Positions 884-64,000 of a stretch of DNA of 64,000 bases are shown in pieces. The stretch is from Botryllus schlosseri. Lineage: Eukaryota. Under the pieces are notes generated by a model, which made no database searches, had not been told where the DNA came from, and saw nothing but the letters and a program-made list of their open reading frames with translations. A program made the translations under genes and the position numbers. Each line of letters opens with the position of its first letter. Position 1 is the first letter of the stretch. The DNA lies in the NCBI GenBank assembly GCA_051294905.1, contig CM119372.1, forward strand, positions 20,648,001-20,712,000, given 5' to 3'.

Positions 884-922
884 TCGACGGGTTTGTTGAT
901 GACTCCCACTTTATCAAACGAT

Positions 923-1534
923 ATGGCATCGAACAGCGTCAACACTATGCAAGTCGGAGCAACTTCAAATTTTCACGTCGGCGTCAAATTCGTCTCATCA
1001 CCCAAAAGAGGTGGCGTTAGCCAATATCTCAAAGGTATATTCATCGATGGCAATAACGAAGAGATATCTTTCACGTGTTTCAATCGTGATTTGTTCGGGA
1101 ACCTTGAGAAAGCATTCACCAAACGAAAAAAACTCATGGTCAAATCCGGTTGGGTTCAAATTGATAAATTTACTGGAAAACCTGCTGTATTACTTGGTCG
1201 GGCTTCGTCAGTAACTCTACATGGAAAATCGAGACATACGACTGAAGAATACCCATTATTGACCTGTGAATCGGTATACGGAAATAAAGATGAATACGTC
1301 TCGATCACCGCTACTTGTGTTTCTCGAGAGGAGAAGATGGTCAATTCTGGTGCCGGAAAGGAGTTGAAATTATACAGTTTTACATTGAAGGATGATACTG
1401 GCGAGGTGGTTTTGGATCAATGGAACAAAGCCTCGCTCGTACCCGGGAAGAATTATCAACTCACTCGTGTTAAAAACTGTGTCGGCAGCTTGAAAATCGA
1501 TCAGTTAACTAGACTTGTCGAATTGAAAGAATAG
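923..1534 (+). CDS. Intronless tandem OB-fold single-stranded DNA-binding protein (RPA1/SSB-like), 203 aa
   Basis: First ATG at 923, in frame with the track ORF at 893. Second domain YVSITATCVS...KELKLYSFTLKDDTGEVVLDQW...PGKNYQLTRVK matches the RPA-type OB pattern (L.D.TG.I.LTLW). First domain has the equivalent IFIDGNNEEISFTCF. Confidence 0.75.
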   Translation: MASNSVNTMQVGATSNFHVGVKFVSSPKRGGVSQYLKGIFIDGNNEEISFTCFNRDLFGNLEKAFTKRKKLMVKSGWVQIDKFTGKPAVLLGRASSVTLHGKSRHTTEEYPLLTCESVYGNKDEYVSITATCVSREEKMVNSGAGKELKLYSFTLKDDTGEVVLDQWNKASLVPGKNYQLTRVKNCVGSLKIDQLTRLVELKE

Positions 1535-1780
1535 TTTGCATATTTGTATACCACAATACAATATTTCATTTTCACGTAAAATGTATGACCTATGTGTTTC
1601 GACAACTGGGTTAGCGCGGTGTTGTTCTACTGATCGAGGTGTGAAAATTGTGCTATCGCGATGAAGTTGCGACTGTGAACAGCAGACTATTCTGTAGGCG
1701 CGAAACAGCGAATAAGCCGAAAGTATTATTCCGCTAGCAATCAATAGCGAGGAAAGAGAACACGATCGGTCATTTGACAC
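1505..1780 (-). CDS. Possible small membrane protein convergent with the OB-fold gene
   Basis: 91-codon frame with a hydrophobic stretch (LSSLLIASGIILSAYSLF). No in-frame ATG (GTG start), so it may be spurious, spliced or decayed. Confidence 0.25.
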   Translation of the reverse strand: MSNDRSCSLSSLLIASGIILSAYSLFRAYRIVCCSQSQLHRDSTIFTPRSVEQHRANPVVETHRSYILRENEILYCGIQICKLFFQFDKSS

Positions 1781-1974
1781 GACTAAACTACGATGTCATA
1801 TATAATAATTTACGATCAAACTATTTCGCACTGAATGGAATAGTGTAATATTCGATAGTAGCGGTTGGCCGGGAAACAATCCCACACGCAGATCATTCGA
1901 AATATAGGTCGCACTGCGTAAATCCTCTTACAAGCCCCGTTTCCGTTTGTGCGGTTATTGTTGGTGACTATTCA

Positions 1975-2362
1975 ACACCACGCGAGAGATGTCTGAAAGT
2001 ACGAATCACGACCGCACCCATAAGAACACATGGCGAGTCACCAACACAGCCTATACGCGAAAGCACGACATGCGAAAGTACGACGTGCGAGAGATGCCTT
2101 TACCCGAAAGGGCGACATGCCACCACGAGTTTTCGATGCGATGTGCGAGAGATGCCTATACCTGAAAGTGCGACATGCCACCGCGAGTTTTCCATGCGAT
2201 GTGCGAGAGATGCCTATACCTGAAAGTGCGACATGCGAGCGCACCCATAAGAACCAATGGCGATGTGTGAGCGGAAGGGGGGTCTAAAAGTGCGATATGC
2301 CAACACGAGTTTCCAGGCGATGTGCGAGCGGGCCCATAAGAACCCCACCCACCTCACGACCG
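1975..2362. repeat. Subterminal array of degenerate ~57-59 bp direct repeats
   Basis: Recurring GCGAGAGATGCCTATACCTGAAAGTGCGACATGC units (~2083-2237), CCCATAAGAAC three times (~2017, 2244, 2333) and TCACGACCG twice. Confidence 0.8.
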
Positions 2363-2839
2363 ATCATACTAACTACTGCAGGCCAAGGGTTAAAAGGACG
2401 AGCAAGACATATTCCTAGCGAAAGGATGGTTGACATAACTGGACGCGACACACGCTTTCTCCGTGCACATGTTGCTGAAGAAGAAATCACCGTGATACAG
2501 GGGCTATTTCACGCCGTTCGTATAGCAATTTCACTCAACACCAATGCAAATTTATTCCAAAACTACTTTCTACTTTTCAAAATCCAAATTGTAAGGTAGA
2601 AAGGAAGTATCCTAGTCTAAAAACATAACCACTTGAACAAGTTTTGTGCAGGTATACAAAACCTACTTGTGAACTCGAAAAATGTGTCACATGCACAATT
2701 GCACATGCACAATGCACATACAGACTCGATCGCCATTCAGTTGCGTAAACCTTTCATGCCATACTGATCGAATTCCAATTCAAGCTGCGCTAGGTCGTTG
2801 ATTTAAAATTTGGCAAGTGTTTTTATTAGTCGGCAGCAT

Positions 2840-3361
2840 TCATGACTTTCGGTTCCTCGCACGAGCGTCCAACACTCTGTAAAATTCCAGGCCTATTTTC
2901 AATGTCAGACTTATGCATATAAATGACACCAGTCCTATGAAGCAGTTGTATAGCCAGTTGGAATTCGACGAAGTGTCCAATGGTCTTCGACGAAAAGCCG
3001 GACGGTGTGTTTTCGCAGAACTCTCCAGCCTCACAGTCTTTCCTTCGTGTGCTGGCTTGTAACATTCGAATTCCTCGTCTGTCATATCGACCTGTCTCAT
3101 TTCCGCGATATCCAATTCACGCTGGCTTTCGAGCTGTTTCAGCAGGTAGAGGCGTCTGTTATCCAATGCCCACCAGTTATCCCTCTTCCACGTGACCCTA
3201 ATTGTGGGAATGTCGTCGACGCTAAGCTTCTTTTTCAAAATCCTTTCATAGACTGATACTAAGGATTGGTCGTTGCTGAAATGATCGGATATGGTTTCCG
3301 TCGTATAACGAACTTCTGACGGCTTTATCCAGATCACGGGATCAAATCGACGTCTGGACAT
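2840..3361 (-). CDS. Intronless ParB/sulfiredoxin-like domain protein with C-terminal transmembrane helix, 173 aa
   Basis: ATG at 3361. Motifs IKPSEVRYTTETISDHF..IPTIRV..WWALDNRRLYLLK. Hydrophobic segment WLYNCFIGLVSFICISLTLKIGL followed by a basic tail. TATAAAA on the minus strand near 3451-3445. Confidence 0.7.
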   Translation of the reverse strand: MSRRRFDPVIWIKPSEVRYTTETISDHFSNDQSLVSVYERILKKKLSVDDIPTIRVTWKRDNWWALDNRRLYLLKQLESQRELDIAEMRQVDMTDEEFECYKPAHEGKTVRLESSAKTHRPAFRRRPLDTSSNSNWLYNCFIGLVSFICISLTLKIGLEFYRVLDARARNRKS

Positions 3362-3633
3362 TCTATTCAGGAAGTCTATACTACAGTACAAAAAGTCTGT
3401 ACAGTGTACTGTACAGAGTACATATGTCCTCGGATTCCGTCACAGTTTTATAGTTCCCCGACGGAGGTATAGCGCATGCTAAATCATCACTGAACGGCTG
3501 ATGTCGGCCTACCGTAATTCAATCGGTTGATTATTAACATCCATCGATGTTGACAGACGTGACGAACGGCTTCATTTAATTTAAAGCTATGTCACTCGTT
3601 AAATCTCATGTTAAAATCTACATGACTGACTAC

Positions 3634-28823: not shown

Positions 28824-29093
28824 CTATAGACCGTAAGCCGTATGTGTCGTGTGACAGTCTCCAGCCTCAAGGCCAGAATCTCCCAAGCTGTACCGGGACC
28901 GAATTTCCGAGGCTGCTATCCGTAGTTCTTCAGAATGATGTTTTGGATTCAATATGACATTTCCTTGTCCAATCTATGAGATAACAATTGCGTATGTGTC
29001 CGAACTCGTTGACCTTTCCAGTTAGGCATACGCAATCTCTCGATTTATAGTCATTTCCATTTCTGCAGATAAGTAGTCAGGTCAAGTGCGAAC

Positions 29094-30328
29094 ATGAATC
29101 GTGTTGAATCTTTGCTCCGTACGCCGTTTAGCCAGCTGCCTTTAGAGCAAAAATTAGAGGTAAAGCGACTAGGTCCGTATCAGCCTAGAAATTGCCCATT
29201 GATCCAATCGTACGCCGGAGGAAAGCGCACTCGTGCCTTTTCTTCAGCGCATTTCGATAAAAATGAATGGCTTACTTATGGCGAGGATAAAAACGCCTTG
29301 TTTTGCTTTTACTGTCTTTTATTCGACAGTGCCGGTACCGGAAGCAGTGGCTCTTGTTGGAACAAAATTGGTTATCGCGATCTGAAGCATTTGTCAGAGC
29401 GTCTGAAAACGCACCAAAAATCCCAAGTGCACATGGCTAGTGCAGTTAAATATAAATTGTTTGGCAGAGTAAATGTAATGTCGCAGCTCAATGAAAGTTA
29501 TCGCGTATCAGTCTGCAAGCACAATGAGCTTGTAGATAAGAATAGGCATGTTCTCTCTCGGGTGATTGATGCCATTAAATTTATTGGAGTTCATGAATTG
29601 CCGCTTCGAGGCCACGATGAGAAGGAATGCTCTCTCAATAGGGGGGTATTTTTGGATCTAATTAAATACACGGCTTCCATTGATAGCATTTTGCGCGAAC
29701 ATCTCGACACCGCGACAGTAGCTAAGGGTACCTCAAAGACTATTCAAAATGATGTGCTTGATTCGATATATCACATCTATCTACAGCATTTGTTTACCGA
29801 GATTGTTGACGCTGAATTTCTATCTATTCAGTCTGACGAAACAACTGACATTACGTGTTTGTCACAACTAGTCGTGATTTTTCGGTTCACGAAATTTGGT
29901 ATGCCAGTCGAACGATTCCACAGCTTTGTGGCTGTTGACGATCGCACTGCTGTCGGAATTTCTTACGTATTAAAAAAAACATTACAGCCCTATTCAGTTG
30001 AGTCGAAACTTATTGCGCAAACCTACGACGGCGCAGCAGTCATGAGCGGATCGCGACATAGCGTACAAGTTTTAATGAAAGAAGTTTACCCGCATGCGCA
30101 TTTTTTGCATTGCTACGCGCATCAGCTCAATCTTGTAGTGAAAAAAATGTGCTTAGGAATATCTTCTGTCAAGATATTCTTTGCAAATCTTTCAGGGTTC
30201 TCCTCCTTTTTCTCTGTTTCGCCAAAGCGATCTGATCTATTGCGCGACATATGCAAGCACCGGTTACCTAGATGCGTATCAACACGGTGGAACTTCCAAT
30301 CCAGAGTTGTGCAACGAGTGTCAGAGAG
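29094..30328 (+). pseudogene. Truncated hAT transposase (TTF-type zinc finger + DUF4371, ZMYM1-like), ~410 uninterrupted codons
   Basis: WL.Y...LFCFYCLLF, LPLRGHDE, SKTIQND, SIQSDETTD (first catalytic D), QTYDGAAVMSG (second D), HCYAHQLNL, TRW. Similarity is lost after ~30328; the catalytic Glu and hATC dimerisation domain are missing. Confidence 0.9.
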
Positions 30329-30564
30329 TAGGGTGGAGCATTTGGAACATTTGTTACCGCACTTCAAGTCACGCCACCGGCAAACCTCTCGCGGCACCTA
30401 CGTTAAAAATCATTGTTTACGGGAAATTCATGTGGCCATCATGAACGTTGAAAAACGCTACTGTGACGTCATATTGATAACAAGTCGCTTGCGGCCCTTG
30501 CCCCACCACCCGATATTGTCACGAGCCGCCACTGATATACATATATATTTAATTGCCCATAGGC

Positions 30565-31996
30565 TAGGGTTGCCATACGTCCGGAATTTCCCGGACATGT
30601 CCGGAATTTCACTGTTTTTACTGCGTCCGGGAGGAATTTCCAAAATATGCCCAAATGTCCGGAATTTTGAAGGCTTGAAAAAAGCTCATAATTTTTTCGT
30701 AAATGAACATAAACAAGATTGTTTTGGGGCATATTCATGAAATTTTTCTTCGCGCTGCGCGCGATTTAGTATCACATATCTTCGTTTGAATATCGGGACT
30801 ACCACCCTCTCAAAAACTGCAATAAAAATATAAAATAAAAATAGCAATTATAAGTCTAATTGTAATCGCAATTACAAGGTAACTGTATATTCATAGAGTC
30901 GGTTGAGGCCGCGTTTGGATGCTTTATTCAAAGATAGTTTGCCTTTATTCTGGGGTTTACGAAGAGGTTGAACGTAATCAGCTTCCAAAATAGGCTGTGA
31001 GTATAAATCTGGGCAAATTTGCCGACCATTAATTAGTAATCAGCTGGGCAACGCCAAGTTGGAAATGGAGTCGCGACATAAAAGATTGGAAACCACCGGA
31101 TGTGCGGTGTTTATATAGCTCAGTGGTGCAGTGCGCACAGGCAGGCTGATAAATAATCTTATCGGTGTGACATGATCATGACGCTACTTTCATTTTCGAA
31201 GTCATCATCCTCCACCAGCTCGACCGCTAACTCTGATCATATGGGCGGAGAGAGGATCAAAATTATATAATAATATATGGAAGAACCAATATTATTGACA
31301 TAATTCCAAAATACGCGAGGGAGATAGCGTATAGTTGTGACGATATGGGCCCACTAACCGGGCGGCTCCGGTACGATTCCCGCCGGAGGCTTATCTGGTC
31401 TCCTCTTTCCCCGCCGTAAAAAGCCCAGAAAAAGATCCGACGACAGAAAGCACTTACAAGGAATAGAAAGAACCATAAAGGACCGCGGCTTCATAAAATG
31501 TCAACATCGAAAAGAACTGTGACGTCGGGCACTATAGGCCTATCTGTCCATTACAACGCATTGTGTCTTATCGCATTGTAGGCTACCTTGTGTGTCTTGT
31601 TCAGATAAAAAAATATCCCAGCGATAAATTATTATCATTATCGATATTGATTATCGAAGAGGATTAGTTCTCCGCACTCTTCTGTAATTCATTCATATAA
31701 TTTACGACCAGATGCATATAGTAAGCCCCCAGAAGTTGCATCGATTACCGCACGGTGGGCCGATCAGTGTTTATTTGTGCGGGAGTGAGGTGAAAAAATG
31801 TGGCTTCGGCCCAGATTACATCTTACAACACACAGCCACATAATCCTGAACCGGATCGTGACCACCTCTAGTCGATAGACAAATCTTTGCTGGTGTGACG
31901 TCAAATTTATCGAAATGGGCTCATAACTCATTTAAAATCCGCTAGTTGGCGCTAAAGAGCGTCCGGAATTTGGATCACAAAAATATGGTAACCCTA
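30565..31996. mobile_element. Non-autonomous hAT element (TAGGGTT.CCATA termini, TCCGGA subterminal motifs)
   Basis: TIR TAGGGTTGCCATA / TATGGTAACCCTA; perfect TSD ccataggc. Confidence 0.88.
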
Positions 31997-60621: not shown

Positions 60622-61321
60622 ATGTCCATGGACCATCAAAACTTCCGAAGTTTTACCAAATGAACCTATGACTATAAAGCCATCATTTTCAACACCTTAT
60701 GAAACAAGGGAGGACTTTTTGAATACCGGCAGTGATGTTGACCGACTGATGTCGTGAATATGCAGCCGGGGCCTACGATACTTATATAGATATACTTAAA
60801 TATCGTAGGCCGCGATGCAGCCAATTCCATTCAGTAGTCATACCTGGAAAAATTATACTCCCTCTGCTAGTCAAATAACACACCAAGCACCTGTGCCCCT
60901 AGGTTATCTAAGTAAATCATTCGATTTTAAACTGTTTACAGTCGCCGAACAGTTCGGCCATTTACTTTACCGCGCAATAAAATGTAAATGAAAATCGCGC
61001 TCTTCGCCGATTTCCACCATAGCGTAGAGTGCAAAACTGATAAACGGCACTTTTTAGTGCCCAACTTCGGTTTCCCATCCGTTCCAGTGGGTAAAAACAA
61101 GTCAAATGCACCATTTCTTACGAAGATGCTCATGTTACCGATTACAGAACCCACTGCACCCATCTCCGTAACCATTTTATGTATTTGACTCGTTTTCACC
61201 CATCGGAGAGGGTGTGACAGCAAAACTTGATACCAAGAATCACCACCTATGGCTCTCATGTCTCTAACGTGTACTTTGTTCCGAATAACACGTCGACCAT
61301 AAATCCAAATTCTTCCCGCAG

Positions 61322-61653
61322 GAGAGAAACCGTACAAATGCAAAACGTGCGGTCGCGCGTTCTGCCAAATCTCCAACCTGAAATCGCACGAGAAGACGCA
61401 CACCAAAATCAAAGCGTTCAAATGCGACATATGCAGCAAGTGCTTCCGCCGCGCGTTCACTCTCAAGCAGCACAAGCTCACGCACACCAAAGGCTCGACG
61501 CAGTCCGACACACAAGCGACCGTTAACAAAAGCATGCCAAACTCGGTTTATCGCCCGTTTGTGAGAAAGCAAAACTCGCCGAATCACCTTCTCGAACTCG
61601 CCGAGCACGCTATGCACCGCCGTCGTTCGTTGGGCGACTCGAGACCCAGCCAG
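61322..61653 (+). CDS. C2H2 zinc-finger transcription factor, exon with fingers 3-4 (GEKPYKCKTCGRAFCQISNLKSHEKTHTKIKAFKCDICSKCFRRAFTLKQHKLTH...RPSQ)
   Basis: Acceptor ttcttcccgcag|; restores the TGEKPY linker across the intron; donor CAG|gtatgc; 332 nt, phase 1 to phase 0. Confidence 0.93.
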
Positions 61654-61885
61654 GTATGCGTGTTGTGCAGAGGCGGTCAGTAACGAAGTTGGTCCGCTTT
61701 TTCAAAGTACTGAAGTAGATTTTGCCTACTTGCACTACTTCCTCAAGCAGTTATGAGGATAAACTACTTCCGCTTCCACTTTACATTTTTTATGCAAAAC
61801 CTCTTGTGCTAAAGCTAAACTCTGGATTTTGGATTAGAGATGTATTTACAATTACATCAATTTTTTGAGTGACACAACTTTGTAC

Positions 61886-63084: not shown

Positions 63085-64000
63085 GGCAGAAATTGAGAAT
63101 GAGTATCACCAGCTGTAATTTTGGTCGAACAATCATAAGAGGTAGATGTTAGCCTTCACGCGAAGCCGCTATAGTAAGAAATCGATAGCGCAAGTGCATG
63201 CGCTCTTTACTTTTCTTGGTTCTGCATTGTATAAAATAACCGAAAACATCAACACAACGTCAATGAAATAGTCCGGAGAAGAAGAGATGTTCTCTCTGGT
63301 ATTAGTAAGTCGGGTTCCGTAAAACTTGTCCATATCTAAATAACAGTACTACCACAAGCGGATATTGGAAATTGATTGCTCCAGACCTTATAACGATAAT
63401 AATCAATTCCCATATGTTGCTCATATTGTCGTTCTTCTTTTCCTTCAATTAAAAGTTCTTGAATAGATTTGCGAGTGTTGCATATCCTGCATGCAGTCAC
63501 ACAGGGTCAAAATCATTCATCCTTGAGTATATACGCCACGATCGTATGACTTAACATATCGCTTTCACATCCGCTTACACCTACACCAACAATATCGTGC
63601 TATCCGACAAGTAGTCCATAGCATTTTCGTAATCCAGGCCAACTATTTCGGTACGATTGGGCTATTATTGGGCCGGTATTGGCTGACTGTGTAGATCGCG
63701 ATAGGCTCCCGATACTATTTTAAATGACGTGGTGATGCAAACTTCGTTGCGCTGCAGAATAAAACCAGAGGTGCTCTATATCGGAGAACCACTTTTTCGT
63801 GGCTTATTGGTATTGTTATCGGGTGACATTCGATCTGCATCAAAATTACCGACTATGATAATATCTGTGGATCGAAGGCTTACTCCCCGATGTTTGTATA
63901 CCAACACATTGCATACAATGTCACACACCTCCATTTACGCGTATACTGTTGTGGGCAAACAAGCGCGACGTATGTCTGGATGGTATTTTTTCGTGGAATG

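Follow-up and report, generated by a model that had tools for sequence, protein, structure and literature searches.

A Botryllus schlosseri gene for a predicted tail-anchored protein of the Tox-ParBL1 type with an eroded family signature

Tox-ParBL1 was described in 2012 (Zhang et al., PMC3482391), with NGK_2271 of Neisseria gonorrhoeae as its type member. According to the accessible text of that paper, it is defined by a ParB fold with an [NT][RT][RT] motif that is equivalent to DGHHR and has mostly Arg in its last two positions, by a conserved N-terminal Ser/Thr that is absent from classical ParB, by an RHS/FilH/HINT toxin context, and by members in metazoans and protists. The same text suggests that eukaryotic ParBL1 domains have gone into core functions, and treats ParBL1 as a eukaryotic acquisition separate from sulfiredoxin (PMC3482391). 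In the parts consulted of more recent work on the ParB fold, a G-x-x-R loop holds phosphates and Srx, SerK, SbnI and ToxB use ATP (PMC12704722; 10.64898/2026.05.05.722872); when the lid Gln (Q52) of ParB is lost, binding stays and hydrolysis stops (10.1101/2021.05.05.442810). A 2025 survey based on PF02195 gathering cut-offs found sulfiredoxin to be the common eukaryotic form, and a 2026 preprint describes a sister group as an ATPase toxin (10.64898/2026.05.05.722872). Literature searches, from whose coverage subscription papers were largely absent, turned up neither a functional study of Tox-ParBL1 nor any account of anchored members in animals; the name "ParBL1" itself led to the 2012 paper alone, plus two unrelated matches.

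The gene described here lies in a window of 64,000 nt of the Botryllus schlosseri genome, on a contig called C2 below (coordinates are those of this whole stretch). In keeping with the first-pass annotation of the window, a single exon at 2840..3361 on the minus strand encodes 173 aa plus stop, with the motifs PSEVRYT..I...F, IPTIRV and WWALDNRRL; the list of open reading frames and the RNA reads agree on this structure. Raw RNA reads cover ~2802-3520 with no joint inside the gene, and define one unspliced, polyadenylated minus-strand transcript of 684 nt, from about 3485 to 2802. Its 5' UTR (3362..3485, minus strand) is ~124 nt long and contains two short out-of-frame uORFs (9 and 15 codons). 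The 3' UTR (2802..2839, minus strand) has 38 nt, with AATAAA at 2827-2822, 20 nt ahead of the transcript 3' end, and a poly(A) site at 2802, where four reads of run X21 have a poly(T) loose end. At 3485, five reads of run X23 carry a loose end that we take to be the template-switch oligo, and a further end of this kind lies inside the gene at 3300. The transcript may start slightly upstream of 3485, because X21 depth fades between 3472 and 3520. An upstream coding exon, for which an acceptor-like stretch 19 nt before the ATG was considered, was ruled out by reads that continue through that stretch. Expression differs roughly 35-fold among runs, summed depth over the gene being ~30-75 in X21, ~4-17 in X23 and <1 in X24; depth is 0-6 in the single-cell runs X19 and X20.

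Among the 18 coding variants listed, 11 are silent and 7 change an amino acid, and none is a stop or a frameshift. With the variants taken as alleles, these 18 give a pN/pS of 0.18 for the whole frame (binomial p 0.0003); the value falls to 0.085 in residues 1-113, and four of the seven amino-acid changes sit in residues 114-134, in the linker. The 173-aa frame is a genuine, expressed animal host gene, and it is under purifying selection. The single exon and the loss of many family residues (see below) might be expected of a decaying retrocopy or pseudogene, but that explanation is extremely improbable in view of the pN/pS of the domain, the intact frame among the listed variants, expression in several runs, and the reading frames kept in the Styela orthologue and in two relatives at 48-49% identity.

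The neighbourhood of the gene is marked by a Polinton/Maverick element of 15,585 bp, which extends from -13207 to 2377 of the window, has 714-bp terminal repeats that are 99.9% alike, carries an integrase-chromodomain gene, and is bounded at both ends by a 6-bp target-site duplication. Its right terminal inverted repeat occupies 1666..2377 and the adjoining duplication 2378..2383; the near end of the transcript is at 2802. The distance of ~450 bp to the end of a virus-like element, noted in the first-pass annotation, is close to the 463 bp measured here from the stop codon, but the suggested link to that element does not hold: the gene is not Polinton cargo, because it sits outside both the terminal repeat and the target-site duplication. 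A contig from run X13 fits the window from exactly 2378, and its other 122 letters do not fit the repeat, which suggests that a haplotype exists without the Polinton insertion but with the gene. The Polinton is probably polymorphic between individuals. Within the element, two overlapping frames (580 and 454 aa; no Pfam match) are labelled as the presumed polymerase region by position only, and a frame of 211 aa at 899-1534 (plus strand) has a faint OB-fold match (E 0.18) and is possibly a single-strand DNA-binding gene.

Both the gene and the Polinton fall within a tandem repeat of 83,353 bp whose copies are identical at every position, window positions -19554..63798 of C2 occurring again at 63799..147152; a 5.5-kb inverted repeat is found at the left junction. 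Since this region varies at about 2 letters in 100 in other individuals, the repeat is likely an assembly artefact; a very recent duplication is the less likely alternative. Elsewhere in the window, a 555-codon frame with DUF4371 at 29073-30740 (plus strand) is presumably a hAT-type transposase, and an exon at 61303-61683 (plus strand) has C2H2 zinc-finger motifs, recognised by eye from the translation.

Residues 9-114 (3020..3337, minus strand) are predicted by model and structure searches to have a ParB/Srx fold, of the Tox-ParBL1 type, in agreement with the fold first proposed for this protein. In the alignment-based model (82 rows, pLDDT 90.9), the chain is compact as far as about residue 113, continues as a loose linker and then forms a single long helix (134-172). 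The matches listed by Foldseek all have the ParB/Srx fold (ParB, Noc, Srx, Atu1540, SbnI, SerK, PadC), the best being ParB 6sdk (E 4e-4). A second, independent structure search (VIA) ranked the same six types first, for example 2hwj (Z 8.4, rmsd 3.1, 98 aligned) and Srx 6ky4 (Z 8.2, rmsd 2.8, 85 aligned), followed at lower ranks mainly by unrelated helices to which the tail aligns. The Z values are moderate, yet both structure searches are concordant and cover the domain. A single-sequence fold prediction (pLDDT 48) was not usable, and a homodimer prediction with ATP and Mg, made without an alignment, scored 0.00 and carries no weight in either direction. Pfam and NCBIfam hold no family for this protein, nor consistently for the 82 aligned members, none of which matches PF02195 at E <= 0.1. 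A levansucrase match in a profile search of PDB sequences was attributed to chance (E 0.64 or worse), and three mostly eukaryotic ESM Atlas clusters at 0.83-0.85 were taken as a lead only.

The DNRRL motif (residues 67-71; 3149..3163, minus strand) aligns to the G-E-R-R phosphate-binding motif of ParB, and the columns of N68, R69 and R70 are 98, 98 and 94% conserved in the family. The phosphate loop as a whole reads L-D-N-R-R-L, with no Srx-type catalytic Cys. After the domain the model has only a flexible linker of low pLDDT (residues ~115-134; 2960..3019, minus strand), which holds most of the seven amino-acid-changing variants, then one helix and the protein end, with no helix-turn-helix or dimerisation domain.

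A phmmer search of 1.84 billion proteins yielded 422 relatives at E <= 0.001. The nearest are two proteins of 174 aa (48-49% identity), and XP_039268685 of Styela clava is 38% identical over 159 columns, tail included. Named relatives come from Ciona, Clavelina, amphioxus, a hemichordate, many molluscs, a sea anemone and ctenophores, and, outside animals, from Euglena, a dinoflagellate and Closterium. The proposed kinship with polymorphic-toxin tips is supported: by hand count, 40 of the 89 longer relatives have an RHS, Hint, haemagglutinin or DUF4157 domain or are named as RHS proteins, and in all four longer relatives checked the domain forms the C-terminal tip. One plasmid copy (named pre-toxin-TG protein in UniRef) is followed 3 bp downstream by an 83-codon gene, an arrangement like that of toxin-immunity pairs. 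In other proteins (P0172, P0186, P0239, P0198, P0182, P0026, P0088) the domain is fused to SF1 helicase, alpha-kinase, RNA 2'-phosphotransferase, DUF2828, PUB or C2H2 zinc fingers.

Judged against the published description of Tox-ParBL1, rather than against the NGK_2271 sequence, the domain fits this family. The [NT][RT][RT] motif is present as N68-R69-R70; the columns of T20 and T23 are 91% and 83% Ser/Thr, and either may be the N-terminal Ser/Thr mentioned in the accessible text of PMC3482391; and the toxin-tip context (RHS, Hint, haemagglutinin) and metazoan and protist members were both found among the relatives. The Neisseria type member was not found in the genome, plasmid and viral collections, and the named matches include no Neisseria record. 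The novelty first implied for the protein stands in part: it is indeed uncharacterised, but its family was already described in 2012 with metazoan members. The fold label is not new either, as a scallop relative, A0A210PVN1, is already named "ParB/Sulfiredoxin domain-containing protein" in UniRef.

Nuclease activity, proposed in 2012 for ParB-type toxin domains, is very unlikely for this protein. Such activity was argued to be conceivable, although the original claim of a ParB nuclease is called erroneous in the same partly accessible source (PMC3482391), and ToxB is reported in the consulted part of the 2026 preprint to cause no detectable DNA damage (10.64898/2026.05.05.722872). The fusion of some relatives to SF1 helicases or RNA 2'-phosphotransferase speaks for such activity; the membrane tail and the absent DNA-binding domain fit poorly with it.

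Three trees place the protein apart from bacterial relatives, where "bacterial" denotes a carrier domain or name and not always a taxon. In a quick tree of 122 domains, from which six labelled rows of short coverage were left out, 47 bacterial-labelled rows separate from the other 75 (SH-aLRT 90, not starred). A careful tree of 51 rows groups the protein with its two nearest relatives (100/98), and unites 12 bacterial rows in a starred clade (99/91) without it; a grouping of its own clade with two tail-bearing Styela proteins (78/87) is neither shown nor rejected. In a FastTree of 364 rows its clade falls elsewhere, among eukaryote-like rows and beside zinc-finger-fused relatives. Deep branching order differs among the trees, and the 113 columns appear to resolve little, but in none of the three does the protein lie among bacterial rows. 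A single ancient bilaterian membrane-anchored clade was considered and rejected, since it appears in the quick tree (SH-aLRT 88) and is absent from the other two. The FastTree needs 16 changes to account for the distribution of tails, and repeated gain of a membrane tail seems more likely than one ancient anchored clade.

The genome itself contains at least 32 matches to the family, which provides the paralogue count called for at the outset: 28 are on contig C3, one each on C12 and C15, and two on C2, the latter being the two copies of the gene in the 83,353-bp repeat, which leaves at least 30 paralogous loci. The C3 cluster spans 24.92-29.21 Mb (L029-L058), with 25 of its at least 28 members within 26.09-27.30 Mb. 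In most C3 paralogues the family signature is complete; a subgroup carries NRM or NRT in the place of NRR, and no fewer than three members are broken or split. The C12 paralogue (L013, near 16.72 Mb) combines an eroded signature with a hydrophobic tail at its C-terminus, and it branches separately from our gene. In a scan for long frames over 200 kb of the cluster, 9 of 22 were set aside as paralogues themselves, and the remaining 13 included transposons only and no immune genes. A PF02195 match was found nowhere in the genome; by this route no sulfiredoxin was detected, for which introns or search sensitivity may be responsible.

Judged by its relatives, the gene is not a recent horizontal import, because the Styela orthologue has the same tail, bacterial rows stand apart, and at least 32 matches occur in the genome. 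The horizontal acquisition considered in the first-pass annotation is therefore not supported as a recent event, relatives being present in many animal phyla and bacterial rows forming a separate clade, and the reading as an animal host gene is supported. Recent bacterial transfer and carriage by the adjacent Polinton could both be proposed for an intronless gene, 463 bp from such an element, whose domain occurs in bacteria. They have almost no probability when set against the position of the gene outside the terminal repeat and 6-bp duplication, the empty allele with the gene suggested by the X13 contig, the tunicate identity of the nearest relatives, the starred clade of 12 bacterial rows, and the fact that one viral contig alone matched the family patterns.

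An unusual property of the protein is the loss of residues that are otherwise conserved in its family. At 18 polar columns (conserved at >=70%, and defined without the clade of our gene), scored in 288 complete domains, it keeps 10, the joint lowest value; of the other six domains at 10, four are near-identical tail-bearing proteins of amphioxus. Its two nearest relatives keep 11, most relatives 15-18, and the Styela orthologues all 18. The hydrophobic core, on the other hand, is retained at 19 of 20 columns. The polar residues kept are R18, T20, T23, N30, D67, N68, R69, R70, K75 and T109, and F28 is also intact, whereas those lost are the Gln and Asp at 21-22, the Ser/Thr at 65, and the Lys, Thr, Thr, Asn and Arg of a C-terminal motif (K-F-T-T-x-N-x-G..R). 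Identification of the lost Gln with the catalytic Gln of ParB was considered and is unsupported: a weak profile alignment to 29 canonical ParB domains (probability 38%, E 3e-4) registers the catalytic Gln with T23, which is kept as Ser/Thr. The lost polar residues could equally signal a new substrate. The anchored, signature-eroded form appears to be new within a known family, and was not found in the literature.

The C-terminus has the layout predicted for a tail-anchored protein, namely one helix followed by a short tail, and the first-pass proposal of linker, transmembrane helix and basic tail is supported, as a prediction, by hydropathy. Hydropathy and the model place the transmembrane helix, which starts with WLYNCF (WLYYCF in the Styela orthologue), at residues 136-158 (2888..2956, minus strand); the hydrophobic segment runs from residue 136 or 140 to 158, with a GRAVY of 1.7-2.2. 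The basic tail at residues 159-173 (2843..2887, minus strand) has a net charge of +3; taken as 13-15 aa, the tail has a charge of +3 to +4. Hydropathy gives no N-terminal hydrophobic run or signal peptide. In mammalian cells, proteins shared by mitochondria and peroxisomes have a mean tail charge of 2.5 in the available part of one study (PMC5450235), and by this mammalian rule the tail charge here is nearest to that class.

Membrane attachment seems to be a recurring theme in this family. Among 364 rows of relatives, 35 have a hydrophobic tail, some of these 35 being near-duplicate or borderline, and 16 have a CaaX-like end; in 150 representatives, CaaX-like ends number 9 against 0.21 expected. 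Counting same-exon tails only, one C3 paralogue in this genome ends in CTIL, and the C12 paralogue has its hydrophobic tail. The family thus appears to acquire membrane tails or CaaX-like ends repeatedly, which was not found in the literature before.

We suggest, tentatively and with somewhat less than even confidence, that this host protein, of Tox-ParBL1 type and predicted to be tail-anchored, is tethered to a membrane and works either as a regulator that binds nucleotides or as a weakened enzyme. It would derive from an animal family that is old and probably linked to defence. The tail would insert post-translationally into the membrane of an organelle and leave the domain on the cytosolic side; mitochondria or peroxisomes are somewhat favoured by the tail charge of +3 to +4 and the moderate hydrophobicity, with the ER possible. 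The DNRR loop would bind the phosphates of a Mg-nucleotide, most likely ATP, which is proposed because it is used by Srx, SerK, SbnI and ToxB, all without DNA-binding or dimerisation domains. Turnover would be slow or redirected, because Q-D and K-F-T-T-x-N-x-G..R have disappeared, in contrast to the core and DNRRL, which selection maintains; we infer this combination of binding and turnover by an analogy with ParB that is not residue-exact. The protein would then sense a nucleotide or temper a partner (e.g., an active paralogue) more than kill. The ParB/Srx fold of the first-pass annotation is retained; the notion of an active effector is weakened for this copy by its eight losses among the 18 conserved polar positions. 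Toxin ancestry, tandem paralogue expansion and fast divergence hint at an immune role, which is plausible.

The same residues can be read differently. It is possible, but rather doubtful, that the protein is a membrane-bound enzyme at full activity whose substrate has changed. It would then serve in cell-autonomous defence as an ATP-dependent phosphotransferase or hydrolase, directed at a membrane protein, a lipid or an invading microbe. DNRRL, R18, T20, T23 and F28 are all intact, the domain is strongly constrained (pN/pS 0.085), and the bacterial relatives are toxin tips, one of them the plasmid copy with a small gene at 3 bp. ToxB, according to the accessible part of its description, is a ParB-fold ATPase toxin tip that is active in plant cells (10.64898/2026.05.05.722872), although it belongs to the PF02195-positive group, unlike the family studied here. 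Loss of eight polar columns in a family of which most members keep 15-18, and transcription in several runs with no known inhibitor, are not what such an enzyme would lead one to expect.

We consider it unlikely that the protein has been domesticated, much as sulfiredoxin was, for a non-immune organelle function, such as the regulation of mitochondria, peroxisomes or ER in particular tissues or stages. A single locus outside the tandem cluster, the orthologue and tail conserved in Styela, purifying selection, uneven expression among runs of one study, and the core functions suggested for eukaryotic ParBL1 in the text available of PMC3482391 would all suit it. Identities of 38% to Styela and ~49% to the two nearest relatives, however, indicate fast divergence for a housekeeping gene, and tandem expansion and repeated gain of anchors mark the wider family. 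We give a low probability to a more general model: animals would keep a large, Pfam-invisible family of ParB-fold toxin-type proteins as membrane-tethered, cell-autonomous immune effectors, with tails and prenylation signals gained lineage by lineage and genes multiplied in tandem, and the gene described here would encode its catalytically disarmed, organelle-anchored sensor or brake in colonial sea squirts.

When compared with the systems described so far, the protein resembles Tox-ParBL1 in its predicted ParB fold, its NRR motif (NRT and NRM in paralogues), its N-terminal Ser/Thr, its toxin-tip relatives and its metazoan members. It departs from that norm in its eight missing polar positions; moreover, the accessible text of PMC3482391 makes no mention of a membrane tail, CaaX end or tandem expansion. 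The Gly position of the classical DGHHR or G-x-x-R loop is Asp or Asn in 87% of the family. With ToxB of CdiA toxins, which probably belongs to the classical Tox-ParB group, it shares a ParB fold that is free of DNA-binding and dimerisation domains and a phosphate loop ending in Arg. ToxB, however, has G-N-H-R and PF02195 in the part of the preprint consulted (10.64898/2026.05.05.722872), compared with D-N-R-R and no PF02195 match in 82 members here, and is a delivered bacterial toxin with an immunity protein rather than a predicted anchored host protein. The ParB/Noc CTPases (PF02195; 6sdk, 7bnk) are the best Foldseek matches, and the weak profile alignment (38%) pairs NRR with ERR, and F28 with the Phe of QPRKxF; unlike them, the protein has no helix-turn-helix or dimerisation domain, and the QPR of their lid is Q-D-S in the family and T-E-T here.

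Sulfiredoxin (6ky4, 1yzs, 3cyi), SerK and SbnI are likewise stand-alone ParB/Srx folds of similar size and provide a model for ATP use, but identity to them is 13-19%. The phosphate loop of Srx is G-G-C-H-R, with the catalytic cysteine, whereas that of our protein has no cysteine. The 2025 survey would have missed Tox-ParBL1 altogether, because it was built on PF02195, which none of the 82 members matches. The closest parallels are scallop A0A210PVN1 (P0112) and Styela XP_039268685 and XP_077967115, all uncharacterised, which combine the same domain with a C-terminal hydrophobic helix but keep 15-18 of the 18 polar positions, as opposed to 10. One uncharacterised member such as this gene is not enough to establish a new system. 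Small and easily expressed, the animal members form natural pairs of intact and eroded signature (Styela and the gene described here), so that the role of the fold in animals is directly testable.
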